DNA from: Eledone cirrhosa | Taxonomy: Eukaryota | DNA: 64,000 nucleotides | NCBI GenBank assembly: GCA_964016885.1 | Contig: OZ024757.1 | Coordinates: 12,586,001 to 12,650,000 of the forward strand | Reading direction: 5' to 3' | Shown: positions 9,642-59,959 of the stretch, piece after piece | Layout of the letters: every line of letters begins with the position of its first letter | Position numbering within the stretch: the stretch's first letter is position 1 | Position numbers and translations under genes: made by a program | The notes under the pieces: model-generated | What the model saw: the letters and a program-made list of their open reading frames with translations, nothing else | Database searches by the model: none | Told to the model about the DNA's origin: nothing

Positions 9642-9812
<171 letters not shown>

Positions 9813-11371: not shown

Positions 11372-11402
<31 letters not shown>

Positions 11403-14950: not shown

Positions 14951-15060
14951 GTAAGTGAAGCCACCAACAAGAACAAGAGCCTCAGTGTCAATGGCTACCA
15001 ACTCCCCCATGAAAGTATGAAATGAATCAAACAGAATAGAAATAATTGTTGTAAACTTAC

Positions 15061-15151: not shown

Positions 15152-15171
15152 CTGTTAAGATATATATATAT

Positions 15172-16140: not shown

Positions 16141-16308
16141 GATAGAATCCAGTAGTTCTATAGAAATCATCATCATCACAGTTTTACGTCCATTCTTTCA
16201 CACTAGCATGGATTAGACAGATTGTCCTGTTGTGGGTGATGTTAGGTCAGGTGACCTTGTCTTGCTCATACGGGAACTGATTTTGGCTTGATTTCTACAG
16301 CTGGATGT

Positions 16309-16345
<37 letters not shown>

Positions 16346-16492
16346 AGTGTATTTTATTAAATGTAACTTAAAATTAAAACCTTCAATGTACGATTTTTGC
16401 CTATGAAAAATAATCTAAAAGAAGGGGACACCATTGCCTATGTGACTCATTTGCCTTATACAGGACATCTGTACTTACCAGTTGCAATCAAC

Positions 16493-16530
<38 letters not shown>

Positions 16531-17679
16531 ATATATATATACACACACACACACATACAAGGGTGAGTCAAAATATAATGCAATTTTTGTCATAGAAAAC
16601 ATTATCATACTTCAGGACTGGGCATATCAAAAGATCAAAATAACGGGGGTAAACTTTGTTCCATCATTATGCTTTTCTTGTTTTTCTGTTCAAGTTCTGA
16701 TGAGATCATAGCTGTGGAATAATGGTTATCATCCGAAATATATATAACAGTGACTATGTATAAACAAAGTTAATTTTAACCTATTGACTTACACTTCTTG
16801 TTTATATATATATATGGAGGATATATAAAACAGGAAACAAGGAGGTGTAAATAGCAAGGGGCATAAACATGAGGGAATGGAGATAATTTGACAACATAAC
16901 ATAACTAGTATTTAATAGAATTTAATGTTGAAATACTAAGGAGATATTTAAAGAAAAAAGAAGAGAGGTGTTTGTATTATACTTAATGGTAGAATAAAAA
17001 ATGAATATAGGAGTGAAAAGAAATAGCATGCAAAATTAATGGAGAGGGTTAATATAGGAGGAATCATTAAAATTGAAATAATTAGGGGGAGTGATGTATA
17101 TTAAGACAATGGAGGAAAGATAAATAAAAGTATATTATAAAATAAAGGGTAAGAAAATGATAGAAGAAAAGAAAAGTAAGATTATCATGTTTAATGTCCA
17201 GGCTATGTATACGAGAGTGTAAGAGGTGAAATTATTAGGTAAATGTTCCTCAAGTGATTAATTTAAATGTAGAGTTAAGGGGAAGTCTAGGTTGAGGGTC
17301 ATACATAGGTGTGAAGAAATAGAGTGAAGAAGAAAAGGAAAGACTAAAGAAATGAAAGGAAAATAGGTGTTAATAAGTTATGCTAAGGTAAAAGGAGATT
17401 CAGCAATAGGAATACTAATTATAAAGATAAAAATAAAATATAGATAGAAATTAAAATATTTTAAAAGAAGGGGTTTATAAAGATATGGTCAAAGAGTATA
17501 AAATTAATTACAAAAGGGGGAAAAGGCCTAGATAGGGAGGGTTAATACTAATAAGAAATAGGATAGAGGGATATTATAGGAAATGTATTATAAATAAATA
17601 ATTATAATTCTCACAACTAATCTCCTATCTCTCCTCCTTGGTTAGTTGGTACACATAATTTTGATTGATATATATATAT

Positions 17680-17870
17680 AATTGTTTCTACTTTAGGCAC
17701 AAGGCCAGCAATTACCCAGTGCAATACTGGTACTTTATTTTATCGACCCCGTAAGGATGAAAGGCAAAGTCAACCTCGGCAGGATTTGAACTCAGATCGT
17801 AAAGGGACGTAACTATGCTGGAAAGCATGGCGTCCGACACTCTACCGATACTGCCAATCCACCGCCCTCC
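17680..17870 (-). mobile_element. tRNA-headed CORE-type SINE (related copies 25145-25255 minus, 54715-54908 plus, 59672-59860 minus)
   Basis: B-box GAGTTCAAATCC followed by GCCGAGGTTGACTTTGCCTTTCATCCTTACGGGGTCGATAAAATAAAGTACC. Confidence 0.8.
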
Positions 17871-18323
17871 GATATATATATATATAATGCAAGTATACGA
17901 ACAGCAATAAATGTAAATTAACTGAGAGAGAAACTGGGTATAAGAGGGATCAGATGCAGTATGCTAGAGTGGAGAATGTGTTGGTTTGGTCATGTGATGC
18001 ATATGAAGGACAGCAGTTGTATAAAAAGGTATAAAAAGGTACAGGATAGCATGAAAAATGGACAGTAAACGATGGATATTCGTTTTTGTACAAGAAAATA
18101 TAAATATAGGTGAAGATAGGATGAAAGTTCAAATATAAGATTTATGACTATAAACCATTTAGACAGGTTTGAATAACAGAACAGCTTACTCATAAAATTA
18201 AGGTGCAAAAGATACAATAAGCTCTTGGGAATTGAACTCAGAACCTTATGATCATGAGACAAACACACTAACCACTAAGTCATGAATGGAAATAAACAGA
18301 CAGATTATCAAATAATTACTTAC

Positions 18324-18466
18324 TAAATTCATCCACCGTATATACAGTCATTCCACACTGTGTACAATGTTCAATTGTGGAACAACATTTTCTACATGCA
18401 ACTTTATGTTGACATGGATTGGATGTGTTGGTGGCTTTATTAATCTGACATGGGTGACATACAGCT
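18324..18466 (-). CDS. Intact upstream RING exon, left arm
   Basis: TTTTACAG acceptor and GTAAGT donor, 143 nt; AVCHPCQINKATNTSNPCQHKVACRKCCSTIEHCTQCGMTVYTVDEF. Whether it is expressed is unknown. Confidence 0.6.
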
Positions 18467-18829
18467 CTGTAAAAGAAAATAAAGATACAACCCACCAACA
18501 ACATTAATTTACACCAATATTACATTGTATACAAGTTTACAGACATGATAAAATACAACCAGTACACTCTGTAATGTGGTTGGTAATAGGAAGGGCTTCC
18601 TGTCATACAAACTTTCCGAACAAAGGAGAGAGAGGATTCTGTAGTGGTTTCAAAGACATGACAACATCCCTAGTGTTGGTGCCATGATTAAATCAGCAGT
18701 GCCTTTCATGATGATGATGATGCTGATTTATAATAAAAGGTGAGATTTGAACTCAGAAGGTTCAGGGCCATAACTCTATGCTGCAAAGCATGGTGTGTGA
18801 CGCTCTACTGATACTGCCAATCTATAATC

Positions 18830-19150
18830 AATAATAATAATGAAAATTATTGTGTACAATGCTCAGGTGCACTACAACTCATGTAGGTGCATGTATTCTA
18901 CATAGAGTAATGTAGAAATATCAGGAAAGTGAACAGTGATTGAGTCATGATACACACACACATGCGTGCATGTATGGAGGTGAGGATATCAGGTGTAGTG
19001 TTGTAGAATTTCAGGAAGGATGAAGGTGTTAAAGGATGCAGTGTCCTGACAGCTAACAACTGATGCAGGTAGTTGGTTCCATGCTTCAGTAACTCTGAGC
19101 ATGAAAAGATGTTTCCGAAAGTCATGGGGTCTGTACTGTTTTCTTGGCTT
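18830..19150 (-). mobile_element. CR1-type LINE 3' end (copies 12590-12780, 40665-41005, 52000-52325)
   Basis: HDFRKHLFMLRVTEAWNQLPASVVSCQDTASF matches the CR1 ORF2 C-terminal RV..WN.LP..VV pattern; (ATT)n tail. Confidence 0.75.
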
Positions 19151-19619
19151 AAAGCAGAAATCAGTTGTCAAACTTCCGCAACTTCTGTATTGAGGGTCTA
19201 TTTTGTTGTTGTTGTTGATGTTCTTCAACAGGAATGTTAGGGGAAGACATGGTAGTCGGTTTGTGTTGTTGTTCAACAGCAATGGTATAAGAAGACACAC
19301 AGGCCAGGGACTGAAAGGACCAATTTGGTAGCTGTTTGTGTTCATTTATCTATTTACCAAAATTAAATAGAAAATATGAGTGGAACAGCAACATCACAAC
19401 TTACAATTAAGGACAAAATGAAAACACACACACACACATAGAACAAACAACCAACCAACAATAAATAAATAAATAAATAAACAAATAGATAAATGAACAC
19501 AAACACACACAGACACCCGGATGTGGCGCATGCGCAAACTGAGCACACAACACACACACAGAAACAAAATGGCGTAGGATAGAAGAAAGGAAAGGCACAG
19601 AAACAAAGAAAGGAATCCC

Positions 19620-39877: not shown

Positions 39878-39969
<92 letters not shown>

Positions 39970-40003
39970 TATATATACACACAGAACGTGCAAGGAAATC
40001 CTG

Positions 40004-41660
40004 TTTCATGTGTGAGAAACTATAGTAACTATCGTACCTACATTATAAATTCTGGACATAGACTTCATTTCTAGCCTATATATATACATGTGTAGATCTT
40101 TTTATATACACACACACGTAGAATAGGAAAACAGAAAGAAAATATATTTTATTGATCTCCTTAACAAGTGTGCTATACTTTGACATATCTATTTGTTTGC
40201 CTATTGTTGTATTGTATGGATTGACAGACAGAACATAATTGCTATGGTGACATCCATAGATGAGGGGTGTGTAATAAAAGTGTTCACTGTCCCAAAATAG
40301 AAGATTGCCAGGAAAATCACGCCTGTCATCTATGTACCGAACCCAAGAACTATTTCCCAAATAGATAGATTCAATGTGGTAAATGTCATGTTTCTCTCTG
40401 TCTTCAATGTGCCATAAACTTTCCAAAGATCCCAGGTCAAAAAAGAGACACCATATTTCTATGATGGATGGATTCTAGGAAAAGGTGCAGCTACCAAATT
40501 GGTCTTTTCAGTCCCTGGCCTGTGTGTCTTATACCATTGCTGTTGAACAACAACACAAACCGACTACCATGTCTTCGCCTACCATTCCTGTTGAAGAACA
40601 TCAACAACAACAACAAAATAGACCCTCAATACAGAAGTTGCAGAAGTTTGACAACTGATTTCTGCTTTAAGCCAAGAAATAGCAGGAAAATAGTACAGAC
40701 CCCATGACTTTCGGAAACATCTTTTCATGCTCAGAGTTACTGAAGCATGGAACCAACTACCTGCATCAGTTGTTAGCTGTCAGGACACTGCATCCTTTAA
40801 CACCTCCATCCTTCCTGAAATTCTACAACACTACACCTGATATTCTCAGCTCCATACATGCACGCATGTGTGTGTGTGTATATCATGACTCAATCACTGT
40901 TCACTTTCCTGATATTTCTACATTACTCTATGTACAATACATGCACCTTTGATGCGTTGTAGTGCACCTGAGCATTGTACACAATAATTTTCATTATTAT
41001 TATTGATTTTGGATTGGCAGTATCAGTAGAGCGTCACACACCATGCTTTGTAGCATACAGTTATGGCCCTGAACGTTCTGAGTTCAAATCTCACCTTTTA
41101 TTATAAATCAGCATCATCATCATCATGAAATGCACTGCTGATTTAATCATGGCACCAACACTAGGGATGTTGTCATGTCTTTGAAACCACTACAGAATCC
41201 TCTCTATCCTTTGTTTGGAAAGTTTTGTATGACAGGAAGCCCTTCCTATTACCAACCACATTACAGAGTGTACTGGTTGTATTTTATCATGTCACCAATA
41301 CTAGAGAGGTTGTTATACCCTTCACACATAATCTCTGTAAACTTGTATACAATGTAATATTGGTGTAAATTAATGTTGTTGGTGGGTTGTATCTTTATTT
41401 TCTTTTACAGAGCTGTATGTCACCCATGTCAGATTAATAAAGCCACCAACACATCCAATCCATGTCAACATAAAGTTGCTTGTAGAAAATGTTGTTCCAC
41501 AATTGAACATTGTACACAGTGTGGAATGACTGTATATACAGTGGATGAATTTAGTAAGTAATTATTTGATAATCTGTCTGTTTATTTCCATTCATGACTT
41601 AGTGGTTAGTGTGTTTGTCTCATGATCATAAGGTTCTGTGTTCAATTCCCAAGAGCTTAT
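40004..41660 (+). repeat. Direct duplication of 51313-52975 (Cys-rich cassette, CR1 tail and RING exon)
   Basis: Near-identical from TTTCATGTGTGAGAAACTATAGTAAC through the RING exon and the following SINE head; visible as paired ORFs in the track. Confidence 0.93.
41411..41553 (+). CDS. Intact upstream RING exon, right arm; phase-compatible with the acceptor at 45494
   Basis: TTTTACAG|A GCT GTA TGT..GAA TTT A|GTAAGT; same protein as 18324-18466. No upstream coding exon was found. Confidence 0.6.
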
Positions 41661-43553
41661 TGTATCTTTTGCACCTTAATTTTATGAATAAGCTGTTCTG
41701 TTATTCAAACCTGTCTAAATGGTTTATAGTCATAAATCTTATATTTGAACTTTCATCCTATCTTCACCTATATTTATATTTTCTTGTACAAAAACGAATT
41801 TCCATCGTTTACTGTCCATTTTTCATGCTAGCATGGGTTAGACGGGTTGTCCCATTTGATGCAAGTCGCGTCAGGTGACCGTGTTTTACTCACATAGAAC
41901 TGTTTCTGGCTAGGTTTCTACAGCTGGATGTCTCTCCTAATGCCAACCACATTTACAATGTGTGCTGGGTGCTTTTTGTTGTGGCTCTTACGCAACCATT
42001 TACAGTGTGGGCTGGATATGTTTTATTCACAGTGTAAGGGTAGTGTGGAGAGGAGTGGGTACAGTAAGAGGTGCCTACTAGATGTATGAGTCTGTGAACA
42101 TGGCAAAGTGTGTATTGTATATTACTGCTTAACACCAGTGATCTCGATCCTGTGTCATTGTCTTTGAGAGGTGCAAGTGTGCAAGGTCAGCTTTTATCAC
42201 TTATCCCAGGTCTTCCTGGGTCTTCCTATTCCATAGCTTCCATCAATTTTGACGTCCTGTACCTTTTTATACCTTTTTATACAACTGCTGTCCTTCATAT
42301 GCATCACATGACCAAACCAACACATTCTCCACTCTAGCATACTGCATCTGATCCCTCTTATACCCATGTTCTCTCTCAGTTAATTTACATTTATTGCTGT
42401 TCGTATACTTGCATTATATATATATATATCAAAATTATGTGTACCAACTAACCAAGGAGGAGAGATAGGAGATTAGTTGTGAGAATTATAATTATTTATT
42501 TATAATACATTTCCTATAATATCCCTCTATCCTATTTCTTATTAGTATCAACCCTCCCTATCTAGGCCTTTTCCCCCTTTTGTGATTAATTTTATACTCT
42601 TTGACCATATCTTTATAAACCCCTTCTTTTAAAATATTTTAATTTCTATCTATATTTTATTTTTATCTTTATAATTAGTATTCCTATTGCTGAATCTCCT
42701 TTTACCTTAGCATAACTTATTAACACCTATTTTCATTTCATCTCTTTAGTCTTTCCTTTTCTTCTTCACTCTATTTCTTCACACCTATGTATGACCCTCA
42801 ACCTAGACTTCCCCTTAACTCTACACTTAAATTAATCACTTGAGGAACATTTACCTAATAATTTCACCTCTTACACTCTCGTATACATAGCCTGGACATT
42901 AAACATGATAATCTTACTTTTCTTTTCTTCTATCATTTTCTTACCCTTTATTTTATAATATACTTTTATTTATCTTTCCTCCATTGTCTTAATATACATC
43001 ACTCCCCCTAATTATTTCAATTTTAATGATTCCTCCTATATTAACCCTCTCCATTAATTTTGCATGCTATTTCTTTTCACTCCTATATTCATTTTTTATT
43101 CTACCATTAAGTATAGTACAAACACCTCCCTTCTTTTTTCTTTAAATATCTCCTTAGTATTTCAACATTAAATTCTATTAAATACTAGTTATGTTATGTT
43201 ATCAAATTATCTCCATTCCCACATATTTATGCCCCTTGATATTTACACCTCCTTGTTTCCTGTTTTATATATCCTCCATATATATATAAACAAGAAGTGT
43301 AAGTCAATAGGTTAAAATTAACTTTGTTTATACATAGTCACTGTTATATATATTTCGGATGATAACCATTATTCCACAGCTATGATCTCATCAGAACTTG
43401 AACAGAAAAACAAGAAAAGCATAATGATGGAACAAAGTTTACCCCCATTATTTTGATCTTTTGATATGCCCAGTCCCGAAGTATGATAATGTTTTCTATG
43501 ACAAAAATTGCATTATATTTTGACTCACTTTTGTATGTGTGTGTGTGTATATA

Positions 43554-43592
<39 letters not shown>

Positions 43593-43747
43593 GTTGATTG
43601 CAACTGGTAAGTACAGATGTCCTGTATAAGGCAAATGTGAGTTTGAGTCACATAGGCAATGGTGTCCCCTTCTTTTAGAATATTTGTCATAGGCAAAAAT
43701 CGTACATTGAAGGTTTTAATTTTAAGTTACATTTAATAAAATACACT

Positions 43748-43797
<50 letters not shown>

Positions 43798-44303
43798 TAA
43801 TTTAATATATCTACTAACATAAGCGCACAGATGTACGCTAATGCCACAAATACACAGGTTATGTCATAGTACTTAGGTGGTTCAATGCAGGAGGATGCAG
43901 AACAATAATATAAAAGACGTAAAATAAGAAAATTTAAAAAAAAATTTTTTTTTAAAAATAAAACTTACTTACTTAAATTTTCACTCCAACTAATTAGTTT
44001 CTGCAATGGGATAAAGACAGTTACGTAATGAACTGTTGAGAATTTCATTGCGTCATCAGGGAGATCTATTCTCAGCCAAGTCTCCAGGCAATGCGCGGAC
44101 ACTGGGGACTCATATAAAAATAATAATAATTCGGTAAATGGAACAGCTATCGAGGACTGGATTCCAGGCACTGAAAATTCTCACTGCCACTGGTGCCACT
44201 GGTCAAATGGCCGATTCTAAAGAATCAATCACTTGACACAGAGGCTAGTCAGTAGGAATGGGATGGTAAGATGACAGACGCCTACTATTTTTCTTATTTT
44301 ACG

Positions 44304-44349
<46 letters not shown>

Positions 44350-45498
44350 ACATCCAGCTGTAGAAATCAAGCCAAAATCAGTTCCCTTATGAGCAAGACA
44401 AGGTCACCTGACCTAACATTGCCCATAACAGGACAATCTGTCTAACCCATGCTAGTGTGGAAGAATGGACATAAAACGGTGATGATGATGATTTCTATAG
44501 AACTACTGGATTCTATCTCATTTCAACTGGCCAGATGGTTCTATAGAAATAGTAGACACTTTCCATTAACTGGGTGACAAAATCAGCAGTGGTGGAGGGT
44601 GCTCTGAAATTGAAGTAGCCAGAGTTAAAACGGGATGGAAAAAGTTCAGAGAGCTAATACCGCCGTTTGGCGGCAACAGGTTTTTTTCTAAAAGTGATAG
44701 GCAGATTGTATGATGCTTGTATACGAACAGCAATGTTACATGGTAGTGAGACTTGGGTGTCGTGTGCTGAAGACGTATGTAGATTAGAAAGAAATGAAGC
44801 TTGCATGCTCAGATGGATGTGTAATAGTAATGTGAGCAAATGGCAAAGCATAAACGAATTGAGAGAGAGACTAAGCATAAGAGGTGTCAAATGTTGTGTT
44901 CTGGAGAGGAGATTGTGTTGGTATGGTCATGTGATGCGTATGAAGGACAACACCTGTATAAAAAAGTGCAGGGCAATGAACATTGATGGAAGCTACGGAG
45001 TGGGTAGACCAAGGAAAACCTGGGCCAAGCTGATAAAAACTGACCTTGTTCACTTAAACCTCTCTAAGACAATATCACTGAATCGAGATCTTTGGCACTA
45101 TGCAGTTGGACAAAAGACCTGCTTTCTCTGGCATACAAACTTAAACCTACAGTCAGTAGGTACCTCTTAACCCAATATACACCCCACTCCACACACCCTA
45201 CTCCGTCCTCCCATAGAAATGGGAGGACCACTGTAAAGTGGTCATGTTGGTGACACGACAAAGAGCTCCCAGTCCACATTGTAAAGTGATCATGTAGGAG
45301 ACACGGTAAAAAGGCTCCCAGTCCACACTGTAAATGTGGTTGGTGTTAGGAAGGGCATCCAGCCATAGAAAACCTGCCAGGGACAGTTCTGTATGAGCAG
45401 GACATGGTCTCCTTAAGTGAAACAAAACCGTCCAACCCATGCTAGCATGGAAGGTGGACGTTAAATTATGATGATATATATATATCTTAACAGCTAAA

Positions 45499-45584
45499 AT
45501 GGAGAATTTATCTGGAGCAGCAGCTGATTTACAGGTAAAGGAAGACAGAACTGGTAACACACCAATATATGAAGCTGTTTCACA
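45499..45584 (+). CDS. Ankyrin-RING-death domain gene, coding exon 1 (acceptor at 45494, ATG at 45499)
   Basis: MENLSGAAADLQVKEDRTGNTPIYEAVS-CA|GTAAGT; start context AAAATGG; the phase-2 donor matches the next exon. Confidence 0.82.
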
Positions 45585-46423
45585 GTAAGTTTACAACAAT
45601 TATTTCTATTCTGTTTGATTCATTTCATACTTTCATGGGGGAGTTGGTAGCCATTGACAATGAGGCTCTTGTTCTTGTTGGTGGCTTCACTTACCAATGT
45701 ATCAGGTGATGTTCCTGGTGGTGAGGCTGGTTGGCTATTCCAGCATCTCAGCCTCACCTTCACCAGGCCTTACGGTCATACCAGTTGATACTCGCTAGTG
45801 AGAGAGCTTGGCTATTCCAGTATCTCAGTCTCACCATCTTTACTGATGTATCTCATGGTGCTCTTATGTGAAGGTGGTTGGCTATTCCAGTATCCCAGCC
45901 TTGCTATCACCATGCTTTATTGATATATCAGTTGATACTCCTAGATGAGGGTACTTAGCTATTGCAGTATTTTAGTCTCACCATCACCATGCTTTACTGA
46001 TGTATCACTTGATGCTCCTCGGTGAAGGTGCTTGGCTATTTCAGCATCTCAGCCTCACCATCACTAAGCCTTACTGATGTATCAGTTGATGTTCCTAGGT
46101 GAGGATGCTAGGCTATTCCAGTATCCTGGTCTGGATGCCCTTCCTATCACCAACCACTTTACAGACATAAATGTGTACCTTTATTGTAGTTCTCAAGCAT
46201 AAGCAGATTAACAAGGCTGACCCTTTGTATTACTGGTACAACTCAGTTTTGCTAGCTGAGTAGACTGGATCATCATGTAATAAAGTGTCTTGCTCAAGGA
46301 CACAAGCCATCCCCAGGAATCAAACTCACAACCTTATGATCTTCAGTAGAACACACTAACCACTAAGCCATGTGCCTTCATTTCCTATATATGTGTATTT
46401 GGATTTATTTCTACTACTTTCAG

Positions 46424-46571
46424 AAAAAACTATGAAGCGGTGAAATCCTTGCTGTCCTCTGGAGTGGATGTAAATAGTCAGAATAAAGAAGGGGATACTC
46501 CACTCTACACAGCCATTGAGAACAACTGTACAGCTATTGCACAGTTGTTAATCAACTCACCTGCTATTAAG
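46424..46571 (+). CDS. Ankyrin-RING-death domain gene, exon 2 (ankyrin repeats 1-2)
   Basis: TTTCAG|A KNYEAVKSLLSSGVDVNSQNKEGDTPLYTAIENNCTAIAQLLINSPAIK|GTGGGT. Confidence 0.9.
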
Positions 46572-46625
46572 GTGGGTTAACATATATACTCTGTAGATTT
46601 GTCTGATTCTATTGATTATTGTTCA

Positions 46626-47185
46626 ATGTTTCCTTGAGCAAGACACTTTATTTCACATTGCTCCAGTTTACTCAGCTGTAGAAATGAGATGAAAGGACTG
46701 GGATCCCTATCATTCCACTGTAAAGTGGTCGTGGAGTTGGTACGGCAAAAAGCACCCAGCCCACACTGTAAAGTGGTCGTAGAGGTGCCATGGCAAAAAA
46801 GCACCCAGCCCACACTGTAAAGTCGTCGTGGAGGTGCCACGGCAAAAAAGCACCCAGCACTCACTGTAAAGTGGTCGTGGAGGTGCCACGGCAAAAAAGC
46901 ACCCAGCCCACACTGTAAAGTGGTTGTGGAGGTGCCACGGCAAAAAAACACCTAGCACTCACTGTAAAGTGGTTGTGCAGGTGCCACGGCAAAAAAGCAC
47001 CCAGCCCACACTGTAAAGTGGTCGTGGAGGTGTCATGGCAAAAAAGCACCCAGCACTCACTGTAAATGAGGTTGGTGTTAGGAAGGGCATCCAGCTGTAG
47101 AAATCAAGCCAGAATCAGTTCCTGTCCCACCCTTGCAAGCAGGGAAAAGTGGACGTAAAATGATGATGATGATGATGATGATGAC
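46626..47185 (+). mobile_element. SINE with internal 48-bp array, specific to the right arm
   Basis: CCTTGAGCAAGACACTTT body, about 7 AAAAAGCACCCAGCCCACACTGTAAAGTGG units, (GAT)n tail; absent at the matching left site near 14008. Confidence 0.8.
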
Positions 47186-47354
47186 CATCACTATTGATAA
47201 ATACTAAAAATATTTCCAAATCATTGTATATTTATCAATCTATGTATCAATTTATCTATAATATCCACCTATCTATCCATGGCAATCTATATATCTATCT
47301 GTCTGTCTAGCTACCTATGTCTCACTATCACTCTGTTTATCTGTATATCTATCT

Positions 47355-48999
47355 ACCAGGTTACTGCTGATTAGTCAACAATAAATATTCAGATTTTTTT
47401 TCTCTTAATTATTTCAAAACATCTATATTTTATTTAAAATATCAAAATATTAAGGGTAAAAGAATTTAGAAATGAAAATCTGTCAATCTTGAAGCACCTC
47501 AGAGTAAACAATATTCATTGTGTAATTTTTTGTTGGTGTCCAAATTGTTGTTGTTTTCAACTCTCGAGCAACCAACATAGAGTTGGCCATGAGAGAAAGA
47601 TGTAGTAGAGAGATCAAGTCCAACTACCTGAGGGATTGACCCTGAGATTTGTTAATTGAAATAACAAAAGTTAGTTTGACTGGACACTGAAGCCTTTTAA
47701 ATTCAAATGAAACAGCTGTAGGTATGAGAGGAATTCTGAGAATAAAAACATTTTCTCCTTTGTGACTACCTGCTATGATTGTTGCCTCTAGGACATGGGG
47801 CTTCATGGAAAGTAACAATTAAGTGAGTTTCATTACACAGGCTAGGTAGGTAAAGATTCCTAAGCAACATAATGGGAGCACCCAGCTTTAGTGTCAAGTT
47901 ATGCTGTGGCATCCCAGTGGGTTTAAGTGTGTTCAGAAATTCAACAGGGTATTGAACAGCCTGACCTTGATTGACTGATGTGTGAGTTGATCGCAAAATC
48001 ATTTCTGATGTATGTTTTAACTTTTGAAGAAGTTCATGATTGAGTTTATCAATCATTTCATTAGTTGGAGCCAGTATAACCTTTTCACATAGCCAGTTTA
48101 TATCAGTGTAATTGACAGATAAATTAGGAAATACTTTATCCATAAGATCATTAAGAGAAAGTACCATTCGATCACATGTAATTTCATGTAGCTGAATGTT
48201 AATATCTCATTACCAATCTTAAGAAGCTCCTCTCAGAATTCACCAGCTGTATGATCATCTTGTAGATGTACTCTCGTGTTGCTTGTAAGATGAAGTTTTT
48301 TCACATGTTTCCAAAGGTATAATTTTTTAAAGCATGCATTGACCTCATCAGCTTTTGTTCCTTTGGATAAACCTGGCACCATTTGACAGGAATTTCCTGC
48401 AAAAAGAACTGTTACTCCTCCCATGAGCATGCTATTGTTTTTTATGTCTTGGAGGGTATGGTCAAGTACATCTAGAACTCCACGATGTGACATAGTGCAC
48501 TCATCCCAAACAATGAAGCAAGTTCTTTGGAGAGCTGTTGCCAATGCTGACCCTTTCGAAATGTTGAATGTTTGAGATTCTGTCATTACAACGTTTAGAG
48601 GGAGTTTTAACATGAAATGAGTGTAGATCCATCTAAGAGCATCATCTTTCTTAATTCCAGGCCATCTTTCAACATCTCTCCCCCTTTCCAAATGATGTCA
48701 TTTGAAATGCAGAATCTAATATTGTTTAGAAAATCCTTTGAATGGATGGGAGTACCTTCCAGAATATCCATAAGATGTTGAGGAGTAGCTGGTAGTGCTG
48801 GTAATCTTACTTTACCACCTGAGCACACCAATTTGGACAGAATTATTATTTTTAGTCAAATGGGATGGATGATATTTTAAAGCAGCTCCATGAGTTGTGA
48901 ACAATGAATTTGTTGATTGTCTGTTTCTGAGAGCAATTCTATTGGATCTATACAAAATATAATTTAGAGATATAGTAATATTGGTATTTTTTGTTTTGG

Positions 49000-49078
<79 letters not shown>

Positions 49079-49412
49079 ATGTTCTTTCAAAACGAATTAC
49101 CACCAAGTTTGTCCAATTGATTGTCTCCCTTCTCAACTGTATGCTATTACTTTTCTGTAGCATCTATCTTATGATGTCACACACCTTACTCCTACTGTCA
49201 CTGTTGTCTCTACTCTTACTGCTACCACGGCTCTCTCCAGCTTCACCAATGTCATTAAAGACTGTCTTTAAATAACCCCACAAATCTGCTATTTTAGGGG
49301 GCAGCATGCTTTAAACTATATGTTGACATGCTCTGGGAGCTAAATAGCCTATGTATCAAATTTGAACAAAATCTGATGGAAATGCATAGACTGCATACAG
49401 ACAGCTATTTTC

Positions 49413-49420
<8 letters not shown>
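47355..49420 (-). mobile_element. Internally deleted, degenerate Helitron in an intron
   Basis: CSGGKVRLP..FLNNIR (Rep N-terminus); Pif1 helicase motifs IVWDECTM, GGVTVLFAG, ILAPTN, YPVEFLN..LKLGAPIMLLRNL, INKSQGQSL, SHGQLYV. Confidence 0.9.
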
Positions 49421-49481
<61 letters not shown>

Positions 49482-49482
<1 letters not shown>

Positions 49483-49900
49483 TAGCTGGCCCCGTGCCGT
49501 CAAAAATGATGGCTAATTGTAGTATTTTACATATAAAAAGTGTACAAGACCAAGTTTTTAGTTTAATAATTCTTCTATTACAACATTTTTTGTGAAAAAT
49601 CTTTCTGCAACTAACATGCCCTGGCTGCTTGTTTCCTTCAAAAGAATTTTAAAGTTTTCCTTCCTTCTTGTACAACTTAAAGCCACATAAAGCTGGGTCT
49701 GACTAAATATGGGAGCTGGCAAGTAAATACCAACATTTTGAATCTCTGTCCTTGTGATATGTTTATGGTGATGGCAAAAACTGGTATCACAGGGAACTGC
49801 TGTCTGCTCATATTGAAGGGTATGTCTGTTTGACTCAGATGCAGGTCAACTCATGGTATGACAGCTTCATTTCCACATTTGAATGAATTATTACATACAC
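49482..49900 (-). mobile_element. Helitron 3' fragment with terminal hairpin and CTAG
   Basis: RQQFPVIPVFAITINISQGQ and QLYVALS motifs; hairpin GCCATCATTTTTGACGGC, then CTAG|T at 49485-49481. Confidence 0.8.
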
Positions 49901-50221
49901 ACACCTCTACACATATATAAACAGACTCATTAGAGCAAATAATTATTACATACACAGACATATATGTATGTGTGTATACATTTATATGTATGAGTAAGAC
50001 AGGTGTAGCAAACACTGTCCACTGTTTTCTATACTTTATCACAGTCCCTATCGTGTATGTATGTAATGTTTTCTAAGTGTGTCTGTTTATAATATGTGTA
50101 TGTGTGTGTCTGTTTATAATTCTCTCCCCATACCTCCACTCCCCCTCTCTCTCTCTCTTACTACACACTCTCCCCTTCACTCTCACACCCACGATATATA
50201 AATATATTTTTACATTTTCAG

Positions 50222-50775
50222 ATCAATCAACAAAATAAACTTAATCGAGCACCTTTACATATTGCTGCATATCTCGGGAATTTAGACATATTGACAATGT
50301 TGGTAGATTGTGGAGCTGATATAAATGTTGTGGATTGTAAAGGTGACACCCCACTACACTGGGCCTGTAGTGGTGGGGGAGAGATAGGGGCTGTGAAAAT
50401 GCTATTGTCACTGTCAACAGTGGATGTGAATGTTGTGAATGATAATGATAACACCCCACTACATCTGGCCTGTAGTGAGAGAGAGATAGATGCTGTGAAA
50501 ATGTTGTTGTCACCATCGACAATAGATGTGAATGTTGTGAATGTTGATGGTGACACCCCACTACATCAGGCCTGTAGAAGTGGGAAGGAAGCAATAGAGT
50601 GTGTGAAAATATTGTTAGAAATGTCGACAATAGATGTGAATGTGAAGAATAAGTGTGGTGAGTCAGCTCTACAACTGGCCAACGATAGACATCACTCTAA
50701 AATAATGGAGTTGTTGTCACATGTCAGCTCTGTTCCTAACGAAGGTGACAGAGCTGTAGGAGAAACAGTTGAACA
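50222..50775 (+). CDS. Ankyrin-RING-death domain gene, exon 3 (ankyrin repeats 3-7)
   Basis: TTTTCAG|INQQNKLNRAPLHIAAYLG..GDTPLHWAC..DNTPLHLAC..GDTPLHQAC..GESALQLA..ETVE-CA|GTAAGT; 554 nt open. Confidence 0.93.
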
Positions 50776-51539
50776 GTAAGTTAACAATGATCTGGAATAT
50801 CAACATTTGTTTCTTTTACTCAATAATGTTTGTTTTTTATTCAGTCATTAATGTCAAAATCCCACCATGGGTCATCGTTATGTTGTCTTTTTAATAATGT
50901 AATTTAATAAATATACTTATAATCATCATTATTATTATTGTTAATTGTGGTGGAGCTGTTTTCACAATAAAATACACCCAGTACACTCTGTAAAATGCTG
51001 ACAACTTCAAATCAATAACACAAGATCAATGTAAAGATGTATGATCTCGGCTCTCCTATCTAAACATAATTCTATCACTGCAAACTACCCTTTTACCACA
51101 TTTCACATGGATTACAATATTTATTATGGCAAACATATTCACTATTGCCTGGCTAGTAGAACTATTTTTAATATAACATCATTTAACAAAGTAAATTGAA
51201 GATGACAAACAAGGTGTAGACATCATGAATGAAAATAAATCCCTGTCTCGTATGAATCACTATAGGGATCACTGCAAGTACATACCAAATTCTCAACAAC
51301 AACATATCCTACTATTTCATGTGTGAGAAACTATAGTAACTATCGTACCTACATTATAAACTCTGGACATAGACTTCATTTCTAGCCTCTATACATCTCT
51401 TAATTATATATACATGTGTAGATCTTTTTATATACACACACATAGAATAGGAAAACAGAAAGAAAATATATTTTATTGATCTCCTTAACAAGTGTGCTAT
51501 ACTTAGACATATCTATTTGTTTACCTATTGTTGTATTGT

Positions 51540-52004
51540 ATGGATGGACAGACAGAACATAATTGCTATGGTGACATCCATAGATGAGGTGTGTGTAATA
51601 AAACTGTTCACTGTCCCAAAATAGAAGATTGCCATGAAAATCACGTCTGTCATCTATGTACCGAACCCAAGAACTATTTCCAAAATAGATATATTCAATG
51701 TGGTAAATGTCATGTTTCTCTCTGTCTTCAATGTGCCATAAACTTTCCAAAGATCCCAGGTCAAAAAAAGAGACACCATATTTCGATGATGGATGGATTC
51801 TAGGAAAAGGTGCAGCTACCAAATTGGTCCTTTCAGTCCCTGGCCTGTGTGTCTTCCTATACCATTGCTGTTGAACAACAACACAAACCAACTACCATGT
51901 CTTCCCCTACCATTCCTGTTGAAGAACATCAACAACAACAACAAAAATCGACCCTCAATACAGAAGTTGCGGAAGTTCGACAACTGATTTCTGCCAAGAA
52001 ATAG
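51540..52004 (+). pseudogene. Intronic Cys-rich zinc-finger-like cassette (ZZ- or piggyBac-CRD-like) with in-frame stops; second copy about 40215-40660
   Basis: HENHVCHLC-x13-CGKCHVSLCLQC..RHH in a frame interrupted by TGA (51585) and TAG (51801); the other copy has a further stop and frameshifts. Confidence 0.45.
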
Positions 52005-52724
52005 CAGGAAAACAGTACAGACCCCATGACTTTCAGAAACATCTTTTCATACTCAGAGTTACTGAAGCATGGAACCAACTACCTGCATCAGTTGTTAGCT
52101 GTCAGGACACTGCATCCTTTAACACCTCCATCCTTCCTGACATTCTCCAACACTACACCTGATATCCTCACCTCCATACATGCACGCATGTGTGTGTGTA
52201 TATCATGACTCAATCACTGTTCACTTTCCTGATATTTCTACATTACTCTATGTACAATACATGCACCTTTGATGAGCTGTAGTGCACCTGAGCATTGTAC
52301 ACAATAATTTTCATTATTATTATGGATTGGCTGTATCAGTAGAGCGTCACACACCATGCTTTGCAGCATAGAGTTATGGCCCTGAGCGTTCTGAGTTCAA
52401 ATCCCACCTTTTATTATAAATCAGCATCATCATCATCATGAAATGCACTGTTGATTTAATCATGGCACCAACACTAGGGATGTTTTCATGTTTTTGAAAC
52501 CACTACAGAATCCTCTCTATCCTTTGTTTGGAAAGTTTTGTATGACAGGAAGCCCTTCCTATTACCAACCACATTACAGAGTGTACTGGTTGTATCTTAT
52601 CATGTCACCAATAATAGAGAGGTTGTTATACCCTTCACACATAATCTCTGTAAACTTGTATACAATGTAATATTGGGTGTAAATTAATGTTGTTGGTGGG
52701 TTGTATCTTTATTTCCTTTTACAG

Positions 52725-52867
52725 AGCTGTATGTCACCCATGTCAGATTAATAAAGCCACCAATATATCCAATCCATGTCAACATAAAGTTGCATGTGGA
52801 AAATGTAGTTCCACAATTGAACTTTGTACACAGTGTGGAATGACTGTATGTACGGTGGATAAATTTA
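52725..52867 (+). CDS. Ankyrin-RING-death domain gene, exon 4 (C3HC4 RING)
   Basis: TTTTACAG|A AVCHPCQINKATNISNPCQHKVACGKCSSTIELCTQCGMTVCTVDKF A|GTAAGT; C-x2-C-x11-C-x-H-x3-C-x2-C-x6-C-x2-C. Confidence 0.9.
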
Positions 52868-54352
52868 GTAAGTAATTATTTGATAATCTGTCTGTATATT
52901 TCCATTCATGACTTAGTGGTTAGTGTGTTTGTCTCATGATCATAAGGTTCTGAGTTCAATTCCCAGAAACATATTGTATCTTTGAGCAAGACACCTTATT
53001 TCATGTTACTTCAGTCTACTCAGATGGGAAAATGAGTTGTATTTGTAATTCAAAAAACCAGCTTTGTTTCATACTTTGTTATGCTGAATCTCCCTGTGAA
53101 TTATAATAATGGTGACCGTTATTGTTACTGTAATTCAATGGGCCAGCTATATCACATACAATATATCACTGAATCTCCCTTAGAATCACATTAAGAGTAC
53201 ATATATCTGTGGAATACTCAGCCACGCTCACTATAACACAAGATGGACTGTACCTGTAATTAAAAGGACCAGCTTTGTCACACACTGTGCCATACTGAAT
53301 CTCCCTGAGAATTACGCTATGGGTGCACATGTCTGTGGAATACTCAGCCATTTACACCTTAATTACATGAGTAAACTGTTCTGTTATTCAAACAATTGGA
53401 ACACTCATTGTTAGAACTGACAGATGTCTAAAAGACAGGTGTAACTTCTACTTCCTCAAATTTTCAGGTAGTTGGCTTCTCCCGCTACTGATGTCCACTG
53501 TATTGATGGAGAGGTCAGCAAAGATTTGAGAAACTATGATTTATTTATATAAGGGGTCTGTAGGAGATAATTTATAATGTTGGGGTCATTTCATGGATCC
53601 CTTTCAGATATTTTCACAGCATTAATGTAAAGATGACTTGTTAAAGGTAGCTAATGAGGATTTGTGTAAGTGTACAGTGTTTTAGGACACCTGTTATCAC
53701 TTTCCTTCTCACCTGTATAAAATAATCAGTGCTCACCGATAAGATCCTGTATCATTATGGAGGACACGTGACATGTAAATATTTGTAAATATTACATGAA
53801 TCAGATGACATTCTGGTGAACACAGATGTGGTCAGTTTAAACTAAAGATTGCCAACATCAACCTTTCTCAAGGAAAGCAGGTGTATCTACTCCTATTTCA
53901 TGTAGGCTATCATGAATTTGTGGCTAGGTCTTTGATAACCAACTTGGCTGATATTAGAATTAAGAAGAAAATAAACAGAATATTTATTAGTAAAATACAG
54001 AGATGAGAGGACAGTGATGCTATATTGTAGATTTGGCATAAGTGAAAGACAAAGCTATGGGAAAAACAAATGTCTAATCAGCTGATAGTGAAATGAGATA
54101 ATTACAATAATGTTAGAATATATAAGATGTTTTTATAGATAGAAAATATTTATAAAGTTTAACATATTTTGTTGTGGGCCTAAATACTCAGATATGACCT
54201 GATATAACAAGAAGAGAAAATATTGACTAAAGCCATTGTGATCACTAGTTGACTTCTGATGATAGGAATGTCTGAAAATATAAAATATAGATTATAAACA
54301 GGAATAGAAAATCTTTACAGTAAAATGAAAAAGCTTGGAAATATATTTTCAG

Positions 54353-54421
54353 GGTCTCAAAAGCCGAATGAGAAAGTCCTATGGAAGGTAGCAAAACTGT
54401 TGGGAAAATGGTTTGCAGTTG
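54353..54421 (+). CDS. Ankyrin-RING-death domain gene, exon 5 (first helices of the death domain)
   Basis: TTTTCAG|GG SQKPNEKVLWKVAKLLGKWFAV G|GTGAGT; 69 nt, phase 1-1; supplies the L..VA..LG.W motif. Confidence 0.85.
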
Positions 54422-55244
54422 GTGAGTATAAGATTACAGTATCTTGTTGATTTCTATAAAGTTTACTTTTAACTGAATTGGTAAAAATGGATAAATTAGA
54501 AGATACAATATAACTAATATTGTCTTCTAAAACAGGGAATAAAAATCTGTTGGTGTATTGGGGTAAACAAGTGAGTTAATGGGAATATTTTTGTTTGTTT
54601 TTATTGAAACATATTAAATTTACAGATAGGTTGTTATTTAGTCTCGGTTCTGCCATGATCTGCAGATTTATAATGGAGAGTGTTCCAGGTGTGACCACCC
54701 TACATTATTCCTAGAGAAGGGCAGTGGAGTAGCAGTATCGGTAGAGGGTCGGACGCCATGCTTTCCAGCATAGTTACGTCCCTTCACGATCTGAGTTCAA
54801 ATCCCGCCGAGGTTGACTTTGCCTTTCATCCTTACGGGGTCGATAAAATAAAGTACCAATAATGCACTGGGTAATTGCTGGCCTTGTGCCTAAAGTAGAA
54901 ACAATTATTCCTAGAGATTGTTACTCCTTCATTCTTCAGTCATCTTGGTCTTATGAGATGGTGTAGTCTTATTGTTAAGGTTATGGTCTTCCTTTGTCCA
55001 CACTCTCTATCAAAGGCTTCCTTCTCTGGAAAAAGAATTAATGTTCACAACCATCTGTCTATTTGTTTTCAGATGAGAATAAAGTTAATCTAGCTTGTAT
55101 GTCTACCTGATCAAATGACTGGCTGATATCTTGAAGTCATTTACACCACAGAACTGTAGGAGTCTTGATCCCTCAAGCCATACCTCTAGCCATCATGTAC
55201 TCCAAAAGAGTCATCTTCGTGCTACTCAACATGTCCATTAAATT

Positions 55245-56580
55245 TAGCAGCAAGGATGCCCTCTTCTTAGTGAGACAACTACAAGAGAGGTTCTTAGAGA
55301 AGAATAAACCACTATACTTAGCTTTTGTTGACCTAGAGATGGCCTTCGATAGAGAACCCCGATCTGTGATCTGGTGGTCCCTAAAGAAACTAGGTGTAGA
55401 GGAATGGCTTGTGAGGACAGTGCAAGCTATGTACAGGGGTGTTGTCAGTAAAGTGAGAGTAGGAATGGAGTTTGGTGAGGAATTCCAGATATAAGTAGGT
55501 GTACATCAGGGTTCGGTCTTCAGTCGAATCTTGTTCATTATATTCCTCCAAGCCATAACAGAGGAGTTTAAGACTGGCTGTCCATGGGAACTTCTCTATG
55601 CTGATGATCTGGTTCTTATAGCAGAATCAGTAGAGGAGCTAGAGAATAAATTCTGGCTATGGAAACAGCAGTTGGAAGCAAGAAGACTGAGAGGGAACCT
55701 AGCTAAGACAAATGTGTTTATAAGTAGAAGAGAGGACAAAACTCTGATTCCGTCAGGGAAATGGCCATGTTCGATATGTAGAAAAGGAGTTGGCATAAAT
55801 TCTATAAAATGTTCACAAGGCAGATCTTGGGTACACAAGGGATGTTGTGGGATAGCAGGAAAACTGACAGGTAGGGAGAAATACGTATGCAGTAGATGTA
55901 CAGGGAAATTTGACAGAGATTGCAGTGATAGACACATTTTTCAAATGCAGGTAGGATCTATAGAGGTAGTTGATAGCTTCTGATACCTAGGTGATCGGAT
56001 TAGTAAGGGAGGAGGGTGTTCCGAGGCCATAGTATCTAGAATAAGGACGGGTTGGAAGAAGTTTAGGGAGCTGCTTCCTCTGCTGACAATGAAGGGTTTC
56101 TCCCTACAGACGAAAGGCCGGTTATATGATGGCTGTGTGAGATGTGTGATGCTGCATGGTAGTGAGAAATGGGCAGCAACTGCAGAGGAAATGTGACGGC
56201 CGGAGAGAAATGAGGCAAGCATGCTCCGTTGGATGTGCAATGTCAATGTGTGTGAATGACCCAGCATAGACGAGTTGAGAGAGAAACTGTGTATAAGAGG
56301 GATAAGATGTAGTGTGCGGGAGAGAAGACTGTGTTGGTATGGATGTATGATATGCATGGCAGGTGACTGCTGAGTAATGAAGTGCCAAGATATCCTAGTG
56401 GAAGGAAGACGCAGTAGAGGAAGACCACAAAAAACATGGGGAGAGGTGGTGAGAGCAGACCTGAGATCGCTGAAGCTCACAGAGTAGCTGACAAAGGACC
56501 GTGTCAAATGGAGAGATGATGAATAGGACGCGTCCCACCCTTGCAAGCAGGGAAAAGAGGATGTAAAATGATGATGATAA
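55245..56580 (+). mobile_element. Degenerate RTE LINE in an intron
   Basis: DALFLVRQLQE, AFVDLE.AFD, YADD, Cys finger; several stops; (GAT)n tail. Confidence 0.9.
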
Positions 56581-57049
56581 TGAGAAAATGTTTGTCACTT
56601 GTCATTGATGTCTTGGTACATTTTAGGCAGAACCATGACTATTTCAAACACTGATCTTGTGATGTTATTGAGGGGTCTTCCATCTCATCCTTTAAACCTT
56701 TACTATGGATGACATGTTGCGAATGTTGGTTATCAATGTTGAATATTTAAATTCTGAACCAGTTCTGACAATACAAAAACTTCTGCCATTTCTTTGCCAT
56801 AATTTTCTCAAGTCTATTTTCTTTAATCTTGTTCTTCTTTCTTCTCCTCACTTCAACTTCTTTATTTTTGTCGGTATCCTTGGAAACATACAACAATGTT
56901 TTAGAATTTTTATGTTAATTATTTCTATTACTCTACAGCTAGTTACTTTGTTATTTACAACAACCTGTGGTATACATATTTTATATAACTAATCTGTTTA
57001 ATGTTGTTATTGTTGTAATATTGGTTTCTTATTGTTTTATATTTTACAG

Positions 57050-57252
57050 GTATTCAATTAGAAGTTCCAGCTTACATACTGAACAAAATTGAACATAACT
57101 ATAGTGATATTGACAAACAGACTTTTCTAATGTTACTCAGATGGTGTGAAATTTGTAAACCAGAAGAAAGCACCTTGGCCACTCTGAAAGAAGCTCTAAA
57201 GACAGCAGAATGTTTTGAGGCTCTTCGTTGTTTAGATTCAGAGGAAAACTAG
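57050..57252 (+). CDS. Ankyrin-RING-death domain gene, exon 6 (death domain, stop)
   Basis: TTTTACAG|GT IQLEVPAYILNKIEHNYSDIDKQTFLMLLRWCEICKPEESTLATLKEALKTAECFEALRCLDSEEN*; L..I..I..Q...ML..W....T...L..AL pattern. Confidence 0.9.
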
Positions 57253-57526
57253 TCTCTATCATCATCATCATAATCATCATCATCATCTTATATCTTTGTT
57301 CCATTCTAGCATTAGCTGGATGGGTTGTGTTGTCATGGAACTAGACCAGACATTGCTGGATGACGTTTTCAATGACAACCACTTTACAGAGTGGACTGGG
57401 TGCATTTTATTGTGGAACCCTCATGACTAATTTACAGAGTGAACAAGGTGTAGTTTATTGTGCCAGCAACTCTATCAAGCTACATTACCACTTTATACTC
57501 TTGTGTGTGTGTATATGTATCTATAT

Positions 57527-57825
57527 CTAAGGCAGGTAAAATTCCCGAGATCCATGGACGAGTTCTCTCCAGCGGTCTCTGTCTCTCATTATCGTTGCCA
57601 TGTCCTGCGTCTCCAACAGACCAGTGTCTGTCCTTAGGGCATCAACATACGTTAACCTTGGTCTTCCTCTTCTAGTGTGTCCATGTAGGGGCTCCCAAAG
57701 GAGCACTGAGTGCAATGTCAACTCTGTCGGTGAGCATGTCCAGCTAACCTCAGTCTCCTCTGTGTCACTTTTGAGCTGACTTTTGGGATGCTCCCATACA
57801 GCTCTGAGTTTTTCATCCTCAGTGT
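57527..57825 (-). mobile_element. 3' fragment of a second RTE-like family, specific to the right arm
   Basis: VLLWEPLHGHTRRGRPRLTYVDALRTDTG..MRDRDRWRELV. Confidence 0.75.
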
Positions 57826-57962
57826 ATACTAATTAATGTATGTATATGTATATATATATATATGTATATGTATATGTATATATATGTATATGTATATATA
57901 TGTATATATATATGTATATGTGTATGTATATATATATATATATATGTGTATATATGTATATG

Positions 57963-58054
<92 letters not shown>

Positions 58055-59236
58055 TGTGTGTGGAAAAAGGATGGAAAGAAAGAAAGTGTGAAAAAGAGAA
58101 GAATTACTTTTACCAAAAATATTGTTTATCACCAAATTATGAATAAAATATTCTATTTTGGTAGATTCAGTCGTTTGTTTAATTTATTTGATTTATTTTG
58201 ATATGTTGTATATATATATAATTAAGTAGTGTATATATTATTTCTGTATACACACAAATATATACATACAAATATATATGTATGTGTATATCATCATCGT
58301 AATCATCATCATTTAACGTGTTATTTAACACTTGATATGTTAGACAAGGTGTCATGTTATGAAACATGTCAGATCATGTGAACCTGTCTTGCTCACATGG
58401 ATCTGTATTTTGGTTTGGTTTCTACAGCTGGATGCCCTTCCTAATACCAACCACATTACAGAGTGAACTGGGTGAATGGTGAGGTGTAGGGAGAAGATTG
58501 GTGCAGATTAGTGTGTACTCTACATGTTTGTTTCATATCATTTTACATGGGATGTGGGGCAGTCTTCTGCAGTACAGCATGATCCAGAGATCTCAATACT
58601 GTGTCGTCCCCTTTGAGAGTTTGTGTGAGGTCAGCTTTTATCACTTCCTTCCAAGTTTTCCTAGGTCTTCCACTTCCAGAGCTACCATCAACTTTGAGAG
58701 CCCTAAATATATTTATACAGCTGTCACCCTCCATACACACCCCATACCACTACAATCTTCTCTCTTGCACACTGCATCTGATCCCTCTTATGCCTAGTTT
58801 CTCTCTCTGTTCTCTCATGCTTTGACTATGTAGTGGCTGTGTCTTTACAGTTGTTGGATGCCCTTCCTAGTACCAACCACTTTTACAGTGTGGAACTGGG
58901 TGGCACTGTTAGGGGGAATGTCTGGCCAGCTGGCCTCGCTGTACCCTGCTCACAGGGGGACTGTGATTTGGGAGCTGAGAAGTCCCATTATGAGGGATGT
59001 CAGGCCAATTGGCCGCACCATGCCTTGCACCTCGTGAGGTTCACTCTAGTCCTTTGTTGTATGTTGTAGTACCAGAGATCTCAGTCCTGTGTCATCTCCA
59101 TTGAGAGGTTCAGCTGAGCCAGGTTGGCCTTTTGTCATTACATCCTACTTCTGCCTAGGTCTTCCTCTTTTGAGGCACCCTACTGCCTCGAGTTCCCTGC
59201 ACCTTTTTATACAGATGTCATCCTTCATGTGCATCA

Positions 59237-59404
<168 letters not shown>

Positions 59405-59959
59405 TCACCCAATAAAATAATTATTACATATCAACGAAGCAGTCTCTTACCTTGTTACTCGATGTGCTAGAAATAGCAGCCAACTCACTTTTAAACATTT
59501 TAAATTAAGAGAATTAGACATGTGGCTGTGTGTGTAGACATGGAGGGAAGTTAGTGGTTGTTATGAAAGAGGATGTTAAACAAGACAAATACCAATAATT
59601 CTGGTTAGATATATAAGTTACTTCACTTCAGCAAAAAGGTAAAAATATTTGATTACTTCAAATCATAAAAATAATTGTTTCTACTTTAGGCACAAGGCCA
59701 GCAATTAGCCAGTACATTACTGGTACTTTATTTTATCGACCCCATAAGGATGAAAGGCAAAGTTAACCTCGGCAGGATGTGAACTGAGACTGTAAAGGGA
59801 TGTAACTATGCTAGAAAGCATGGCATCCAACCCTCTACCATTACTGCCAATTCACCACCCTCATATCATAAATATGTTTGATTGTAGTATTTACAAATGA
59901 ATATAGTGTTGTATAATAAGGCTCCTGTGTTGTGCTGGAGACAGAAGCTAAGGGATAAA

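Follow-up and report, generated by a model that had tools for sequence, protein, structure and literature searches.

The stretch of DNA analysed here, referred to as the window, covers 64,000 nucleotides (nt) of the Eledone cirrhosa genome (GCA_964016885.1, contig OZ024757.1, positions 12,586,001 to 12,650,000). Its forward strand carries a gene of six exons, the product of which is laid out as seven ankyrin repeats, then a C3HC4 RING and then a death domain. Our reading, to which we assign a probability of about 0.5, is that this gene is an open copy of an expanded octopus family whose proteins are likely variable intracellular sensor-adaptors rather than ubiquitin ligases. Positions are those of the window unless a chromosome is named (C1, C26, C27 etc., in the 3.0-Gb genome that was searched).

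Gene model and splicing

Every intron of the gene is GT-AG, with phases 2,0,2,1,1, and the exons join into 1,203 nt, i.e., 400 amino acids (aa) and a stop. The same exons, splice sites and phases had been put forward in a sequence-only reading of this DNA, and our recomputed coordinates and phases agree with it.

45494..45584, forward strand: exon 1, first ankyrin repeat; the acceptor ends at 45493 and the ATG lies at 45499, 5 nt past the acceptor
46424..46571, forward strand: exon 2, ankyrin repeats, placed by Pfam and contig ends
50222..50775, forward strand: exon 3, long ankyrin exon with about five repeats and a linker
52725..52867, forward strand: exon 4, C3HC4 RING, very probably derived from MIB2 RING1, with P/I/T/Q/G at the E2-contact positions
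54353..54421, forward strand: exon 5, first part of the death domain, 69 nt against 72 in paralogues, phase 1-1
57050..57252, forward strand: exon 6, remainder of the death domain and the stop

The ankyrin repeats of exons 2 and 3 gave strong Pfam matches. Exon 4 matched zf-C3HC4_3 at E 3e-4 and 21 bits, under the cut-off of 27, and has all eight zinc ligands, while exon 6 by itself matched Pfam Death at E 0.008 and 16.7 bits, under the cut-off of 22.6; a full homologue passed Pfam Death at 41.5 bits. Structures were modelled for exon 6 alone and for an Octopus vulgaris homologue, in place of the spliced 400-aa protein. The exon 6 model consists of four helices, with a predicted local distance difference test score (pLDDT) of 78.5. 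In VIA alignment its ten best rows were all death domains, headed by the FADD death domain with Z 7.7, a root-mean-square deviation of 2.3 and 65 aligned residues, where a Z below 8 counts as only moderate. Foldseek returned death domains in the top seven of twelve rows, yet none with E < 0.4. The homologue model (pLDDT 85) showed ankyrins, a low-confidence RING and a helical death bundle, and Foldseek with the whole homologue retrieved ankyrin structures only. Through these two predicted models the domain belongs to the death domain superfamily with its six-helix fold. The ankyrin-RING-death architecture proposed from the sequence was therefore borne out by Pfam (with RING and Death below threshold), the eight zinc ligands and the fold match of exon 6, although the expected full death fold was recovered for this exon as four helices and with a moderate Z only.

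Contigs from four sequencing runs (X1 to X4) of one study, with library kind and tissue unrecorded, covered positions 50150-57330 and 45440-46640. A 356-nt contig of X4 spans exons 2 and 3, with 137 and 221 letters on them respectively, and loose ends at both edges of exon 2 read into exons 1 and 3 of a paralogue. The junction between exons 5 and 6 was present in contigs of X2, X3 and X4, an X4 contig joined a shortened RING exon to exon 5, and for the exon 1-exon 2 junction the contigs gave no more than 8 loose letters. These contigs establish the splice pattern for a paralogue. Of the junctions for which spliced reads had been called for, those of exons 2-3 and 5-6 were bridged in this paralogous form, but no X1-X4 contig carried the exon 3 letters of the window copy; contigs cannot show absence of expression. 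The splice pattern is not due to chance, since its splice sites recur in paralogues and in a retrocopy on C1 and since paralogue contigs bridge the exons. The exon 1 ATG is present in 11 of 14 near-full-length copies, and exon 3 is 97-98% identical to two further copies on C26 and C27. Across window positions 50207-50787, runs X1-X3 gave one unbroken 581-nt contig with the C27 version of the long exon 3 only, although the genome has three versions; either a copy-number difference between animals or selective transcription could account for it.

Two candidate exons were rejected. A Cys-rich frame in intron 3 (51588..51803, forward strand) was broken in all five other copies translated and absent from the retrocopy, and a candidate 5' exon at 43380-43481 had no open frame into exon 1, the sole loose end before exon 1 matching another exon. 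Degenerate Cys-rich frames of this kind occur in the intron preceding each RING exon (51588-51803 and 40264-40479), with 94-98% identity among copies, and are possibly a remnant of a transposon zinc finger.

Family copies, relatives and origin

Exon 6 matched the genome 35 times, with 27 intron-bearing copies and eight copies in one array on C1. Among the 27, 24 are open to the normal stop, one has a stop, one a frameshift and one reads past the stop. The RING exon was matched at least 29 times and exon 1 at least 16 times, both counts being lower bounds. No stop interrupts the translations of five single-module models on C27 or of the second module on C26. The array on C1 is a retrocopy, frameshifted and without introns, in which exons 3-4-5-6 are joined at the predicted points. 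Hence the family shows birth and death by segmental duplication, with open genes, partial duplicates and a retrocopy, as the sequence-only reading had supposed for a lineage-restricted family.

Several further observations concern these copies. At C1:208,684,200-208,690,200 the processed, frameshifted retrocopy has been amplified in tandem and consists of two ankyrin-RING-death units plus consecutive 325-nt repeats of the death domain, and its death-domain stretch had no Pfam match. Exon 5 compared across 16 paralogues (window 54353-54421) had a proportion of synonymous differences (pS) of 0.17 and of nonsynonymous differences (pN) of 0.14, against 0.02 in the flanking introns, an excess for which intron homogenisation or exon swapping could account. 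At C28:124.7-125.4 Mb exon 5 has been captured by a large tandem array and is present in at least 19 frameshifted copies spaced by about 30-44 kb. Exon 2 recurs about 25 times in tandem at C12:9.02-9.05 Mb with roughly 1-kb spacing, as either a long ankyrin-array gene or a satellite. A sequence at C28:106,582,414-106,582,542, apart from the MIB1 locus on C4, resembles MIB1 RING2 with one ligand changed and is perhaps a retrocopy.

A profile of the death exon, searched against 1.84 billion representative proteins, returned 62 matches at E <= 0.001. Pfam scanning of 37 of them found ankyrin, RING and Death together in 10. Among the 30 clusters looked up, 27 came from O. vulgaris, O. sinensis or O. 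bimaculoides, and the other three (Argonauta, amphioxus and a coral) lacked ankyrin and RING matches. The architecture search and paralogue count proposed earlier thus yielded 27 intron-bearing death-exon copies here and relatives in three Octopus species. Word-based homologue searches found none among 23 candidates with exon 6, generic ankyrin proteins only with exon 3, and six Octopus proteins among 403 candidates with a family member as query. The Octopus relatives are mostly named automatically, in RefSeq and UniRef, as MIB2-like, MIB1-like or ankyrin-3-like; the window model is 27-38% identical to eight of these database proteins. Four of them (XP_029652081.1, XP_036355694.1, CAI9744078.1 and XP_014780589.2) have the same ankyrin-RING-death order by Pfam. 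Many, however, have two parts that the window model lacks, the last ankyrin segment of MIB2 and a repeat linker preceding the death domain. Our literature search found no description of an ankyrin-RING-death family, with subscription journals and the supplements of cephalopod genome papers, which may list an expanded orthogroup, outside its scope. The parts are known and the proteins are already in databases under automatic names; it is the family that we did not find described in the literature.

The introns and the closest sequences point to two donor genes. Two loci with SH3_15 (MIB) domains are present in the genome, on C24 and C4, in contrast to the multi-copy and fast-evolving octopus family. 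Among 30 of the 39 listed RING loci, a profile of the family RING scored 60 bits on MIB2 RING1, 41.7 on the next best, which is IAP-like, and 17 on MIB2 RING2; MIB1 RING3 was likewise at 17 or less. This agrees with the Mind bomb-type RING named in the sequence-only reading. A phase-1 donor ten codons past the last Cys, where exon 4 ends, was shown by MIB2 RING1 only, and Octopus members retain the atypical last ankyrin segment of MIB2 (51% identity, E 5e-14). The window gene shares with MIB1 and MIB2 an ankyrin array followed by a RING1-type C3HC4 and the phase-1 intron after this RING. Where the Mind bomb proteins have MZM and REP regions, a coiled coil and a terminal catalytic RING, it has a death domain; the N-terminal MZM and REP (SH3_15) region is absent from the model, the start codon of which lies in exon 1, no REP region was found upstream of the gene, and there is neither coiled coil nor terminal RING.

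For a death domain of the family, the nearest entry in PDB is RIPK1 (E 2e-8; the next at 7e-5). The exon pair 5 and 6 has a counterpart in a death-domain gene at C24:15.36 Mb, where one exon is of 75 nt and phase 1-1 and the final exon opens at the same Gly. This gene and Octopus XP_014771875.1, both RIPK1/IMD-like adaptors, have the closest death domain and the same two-exon phase-1 split, whereas the window protein lacks a kinase and begins with ankyrin-RING. No RHIM-like motif was seen in the window model; the stretches in P0145 and P0157 that we take to be RHIM-like were judged by eye. On these comparisons the family very probably consists of the ankyrin-RING1 half of MIB2 and a RIPK1-like death domain, and a phase-1 exon shuffle would have replaced the catalytic end of MIB2 with the two-exon death domain. 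Mammalian MIB2 is reported to bind and ubiquitylate RIPK1 (PMC5912950), which places the two donor genes in a single mammalian pathway.

The duplicated block and the status of the window copy

The gene lies within a larger duplication, and the following features surround or interrupt it.

39881..59913, forward strand: segmental duplicate, collinear through exons and introns alike with the 3' part of the two-module loci on C26 and C27
41411..41553, forward strand: orphan RING exon, a remnant of the missing upstream module, with intact splice sites and in frame with exon 1
11610..19334, reverse strand: inverted broken copy with RING, exon 1 without ATG, exon 2, frameshifted RING and death exon
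47766..48697, reverse strand: PIF1-helicase remnant in intron 2 (Pfam PIF1 and Pif1_2B), presumably Helitron-like
55135..56500, forward strand: reverse-transcriptase remnant of a long interspersed nuclear element in intron 5 (Pfam RVT_1, E 3e-8), end coordinate approximate

The two-module loci on C26 and C27 read ankyrin-RING-ankyrin-RING-death and differ from the window duplicate by about 3.4% in introns (3.3-3.5%). Homology begins abruptly at 39881, at a (TA)n tract within an intron, and because the duplicate begins inside this intron the first ankyrin module is missing from the window copy. In a C27 paralogue, an exon 14.7 kb upstream of the gene has a donor site after it and an in-frame stop inside; the contig end before exon 1 matches this exon, weakly, by 8 loose letters. 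Since the upstream exon is closed by the stop, the exon 1 ATG is the likely start. The upstream exon matched the genome at nine places (eight on C27 and one at C18:5.79 Mb), none of them near the window, and a search of the 40 kb preceding the window found no family exon. The window copy corresponds to the 3' part of a two-module gene that was duplicated, and it lacks the upstream exon of the family. The description of the locus as a hidden intact gene therefore holds for the open six-exon frame, but not for the rest, given the same-architecture Octopus proteins in RefSeq and UniRef and the absent 5' exon.

Exons 3 and 5 were looked for in the inverted copy and not found. Two observations were made on the surrounding sequence. 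Positions 3680-19334 and 40488-62638 form a large inverted duplication of 85-97% identity with a 21-kb spacer between them. A GC-rich nested hairpin at 39760-39875, directly before the (TA)n start of the duplicated block, is possibly a transposon end.

The abrupt start of homology inside an intron and the confinement of the upstream exon to other places are what would be expected if the family were functional and the window copy a silent duplicate that has no promoter but still an undecayed frame. We consider this a serious alternative, at somewhat less than even chances. The neighbouring inverted copy is broken, the contigs match the C27 paralogue, and all 11 other RING-death copies checked had no ankyrin exon in about 19.5 kb upstream. 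Under a rough model, however, a neutral copy at 3.3-3.5% intron divergence would have stayed intact with a probability of only about 0.06-0.07, and the window copy keeps its ATG, six exons and all splice sites. Moreover, the C26 locus likewise lacks the upstream exon, yet it is open and strongly diverged. That the window copy is expressed and functional is, in our estimate, an evenly balanced proposition. We regard the locus as a real but second-rank, possibly silent member, and the C27 cluster as the better target.

Selection, the RING and the proposed role

Selection was analysed on the short ankyrin exons of seven paralogues (six on C27, one on C26), and not on the long exon 3 of the window. 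At 35 binding-face codons, the positions of which we take from the ankyrin consensus, pN was 0.265, compared with 0.07 at 130 framework codons, a pS of 0.021 and a divergence of 0.012 in flanking introns; the binding-face value was not attained in any of 20,000 random sets of columns. A codon model peaked near omega 7, with a log-likelihood of -1639.9 versus -1663.7 at omega 1. The six C27 genes differ by at least 71 amino-acid changes and have no purely synonymous codon alleles. There is strong positive selection on the ankyrin binding faces of the paralogues, and this fits a variable sensor signalling through a death domain.

A sensor-adaptor role has, in our estimate, roughly even odds. The ankyrin array of each member would bind a different, fast-changing partner, probably foreign or altered by infection; partner binding would cluster the protein, and the clustered death domain would seed a complex with FADD or a RIPK1/IMD-like adaptor, leading to caspase or NF-kB signalling, while the RING would be a leftover spacer. 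Every step past the variable binding face is one that we infer. FADD has been reported in molluscs, a cephalopod included, in the accessible part of PMC11463336.

Several results weigh against this reading. The selection test has few sequences and a model without kappa, and gene conversion can distort omega. Window exon 3 differs from its C27 counterpart by 14 nonsynonymous and one synonymous change, which was not significant in a hand calculation (p ~0.1), and only 4 of the 14 variable residues are at binding positions. The death domain has an omega of about 1, which does not demonstrate constraint. At all 15 exon 3 differences the contigs carry the letters of the C27:15.05 Mb paralogue, and at 12 of the 15 those of C26. 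A search of 35 kb around the C24 donor located no RHIM, so that the term 'IMD-like' rests on relatives. Finally, the RING ends in P-I-C-R in some O. sinensis and O. vulgaris members (three of the 15 Octopus RINGs that were scored), and these may be active ligases.

The death-domain omega of about 1, together with variable surface positions, also bears on a second alternative, in which the protein has no signalling of its own and serves as a decoy or brake: its death domain would cap or soak up death-domain complexes, or bait pathogen effectors aimed at MIB2- or RIPK1-like targets. A catalytically stripped derivative of a RIPK1 regulator and the many RING-death-only copies would suit such a role, but the strongest selection is on the ankyrin faces and not on the death domain, which fits ligand choice by the ankyrins, and we hold the decoy to be unlikely. 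Positive selection by itself names no partner, and the tissue of the runs is unrecorded; recognition outside immunity, by gametes, in self-recognition, in neuronal pruning or in developmental cell death, would also be compatible with it. We find this less likely still, as clustered copies that evolve by birth and death, and in which an intracellular repeat array is coupled to a RIPK1-type death domain, are what invertebrate immune receptors usually look like.

The remaining alternative concerns the RING. In MIB1, the ANK-RING1-2 fragment does not self-ubiquitinate, and RING3 contacts the ubiquitin-conjugating enzyme (E2) through V965, M989, P993, I994 and R996, as stated in the part available of a preprint (10.1101/2024.03.01.582834). 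A MIB2 RING1 mutant still ubiquitylates cFLIP whereas a RING2 mutant does not (PMC7815719, partial text). At the five contact positions the window RING reads P, I, T, Q and G, and four of the five differ from MIB1 RING3. First RING exons on C27 contain in-frame 12-aa repeats in six of six genes and have lost the His ligand in three of six. One second RING exon on C27 has shrunk from 143 to 59 nt without loss of frame (frame read by hand), and this 59-nt exon is the form that the X4 contig joins to exon 5. The RING1 ancestry, the changed contact residues and the in-frame breakage in open paralogues make ubiquitin ligase (E3) activity unlikely, and the window RING is probably not an active E3. 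The earlier proposal of an E3 ligase is accordingly not sustained, RING1 being dispensable in MIB2 (PMC7815719), and of the receptor-like module the repeat sensor is supported, through selection on the paralogue ankyrin faces, and the ligase is not. A compact E3, with ankyrins for substrate choice, the RING for E2 recruitment and the death domain for docking on signalling complexes, is the least probable alternative, because of this ancestry, residue change and RING destruction, and despite the retained zinc ligands, the P-I-C-R endings and a paralogue RING that passes the Pfam cut-off and resembles the XIAP RING (E 5e-7).

As a separate observation, the C27 RING exons (13.0-15.1 Mb) contain up to seven in-frame repeats of a 36-nt unit, with a K-A-T-N-T core that is similar to what we take to be an LC8-binding motif.

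Compared with expanded invertebrate families of the NLR and TLR type, the octopus family likewise combines a variable repeat array, positive selection, a death-fold domain and clusters with pseudogenes, but it lacks NACHT, LRR and TIR domains and is built from a ubiquitin ligase. Molluscan IAPs of the BIR-DD-RING type, as described in the part seen of PMC8917759 and the closest published parallel that we met, similarly join RING and death domain in one cell-death regulator with lineage-specific expansion, with BIR domains where the window protein has ankyrins. In that portion of the article IAPs are least expanded in Octopus, and there is no mention of 'ankyrin'. By Pfam no BIR was found in the exons or homologues scanned, and the window RING is internal and nearer to MIB2 RING1.

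Cephalopods have to recognise diverse pathogens without antibodies. Tentatively, and with somewhat less confidence than in the sensor-adaptor role itself, the family may be an intracellular immune-receptor repertoire of the octopuses' own, made by exon shuffling, in which MIB2 lost its substrate-binding and catalytic ends and gained the death domain of a RIPK1/IMD-like adaptor. With selected ankyrin faces and a RIPK1-type death domain, it is a concrete, octopus-restricted candidate for such a repertoire; its fusion origin is readable from introns common to both donor genes, and its ligase finger is visibly decaying in frame. For many Octopus genes the annotation 'E3 ubiquitin-protein ligase MIB2-like' is probably wrong on both counts, MIB2 and ligase. 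If the proposal is true, the family would be a natural library of ankyrin binders that trigger death-domain signalling, an NLR-like role assembled from the parts of a ubiquitin ligase.

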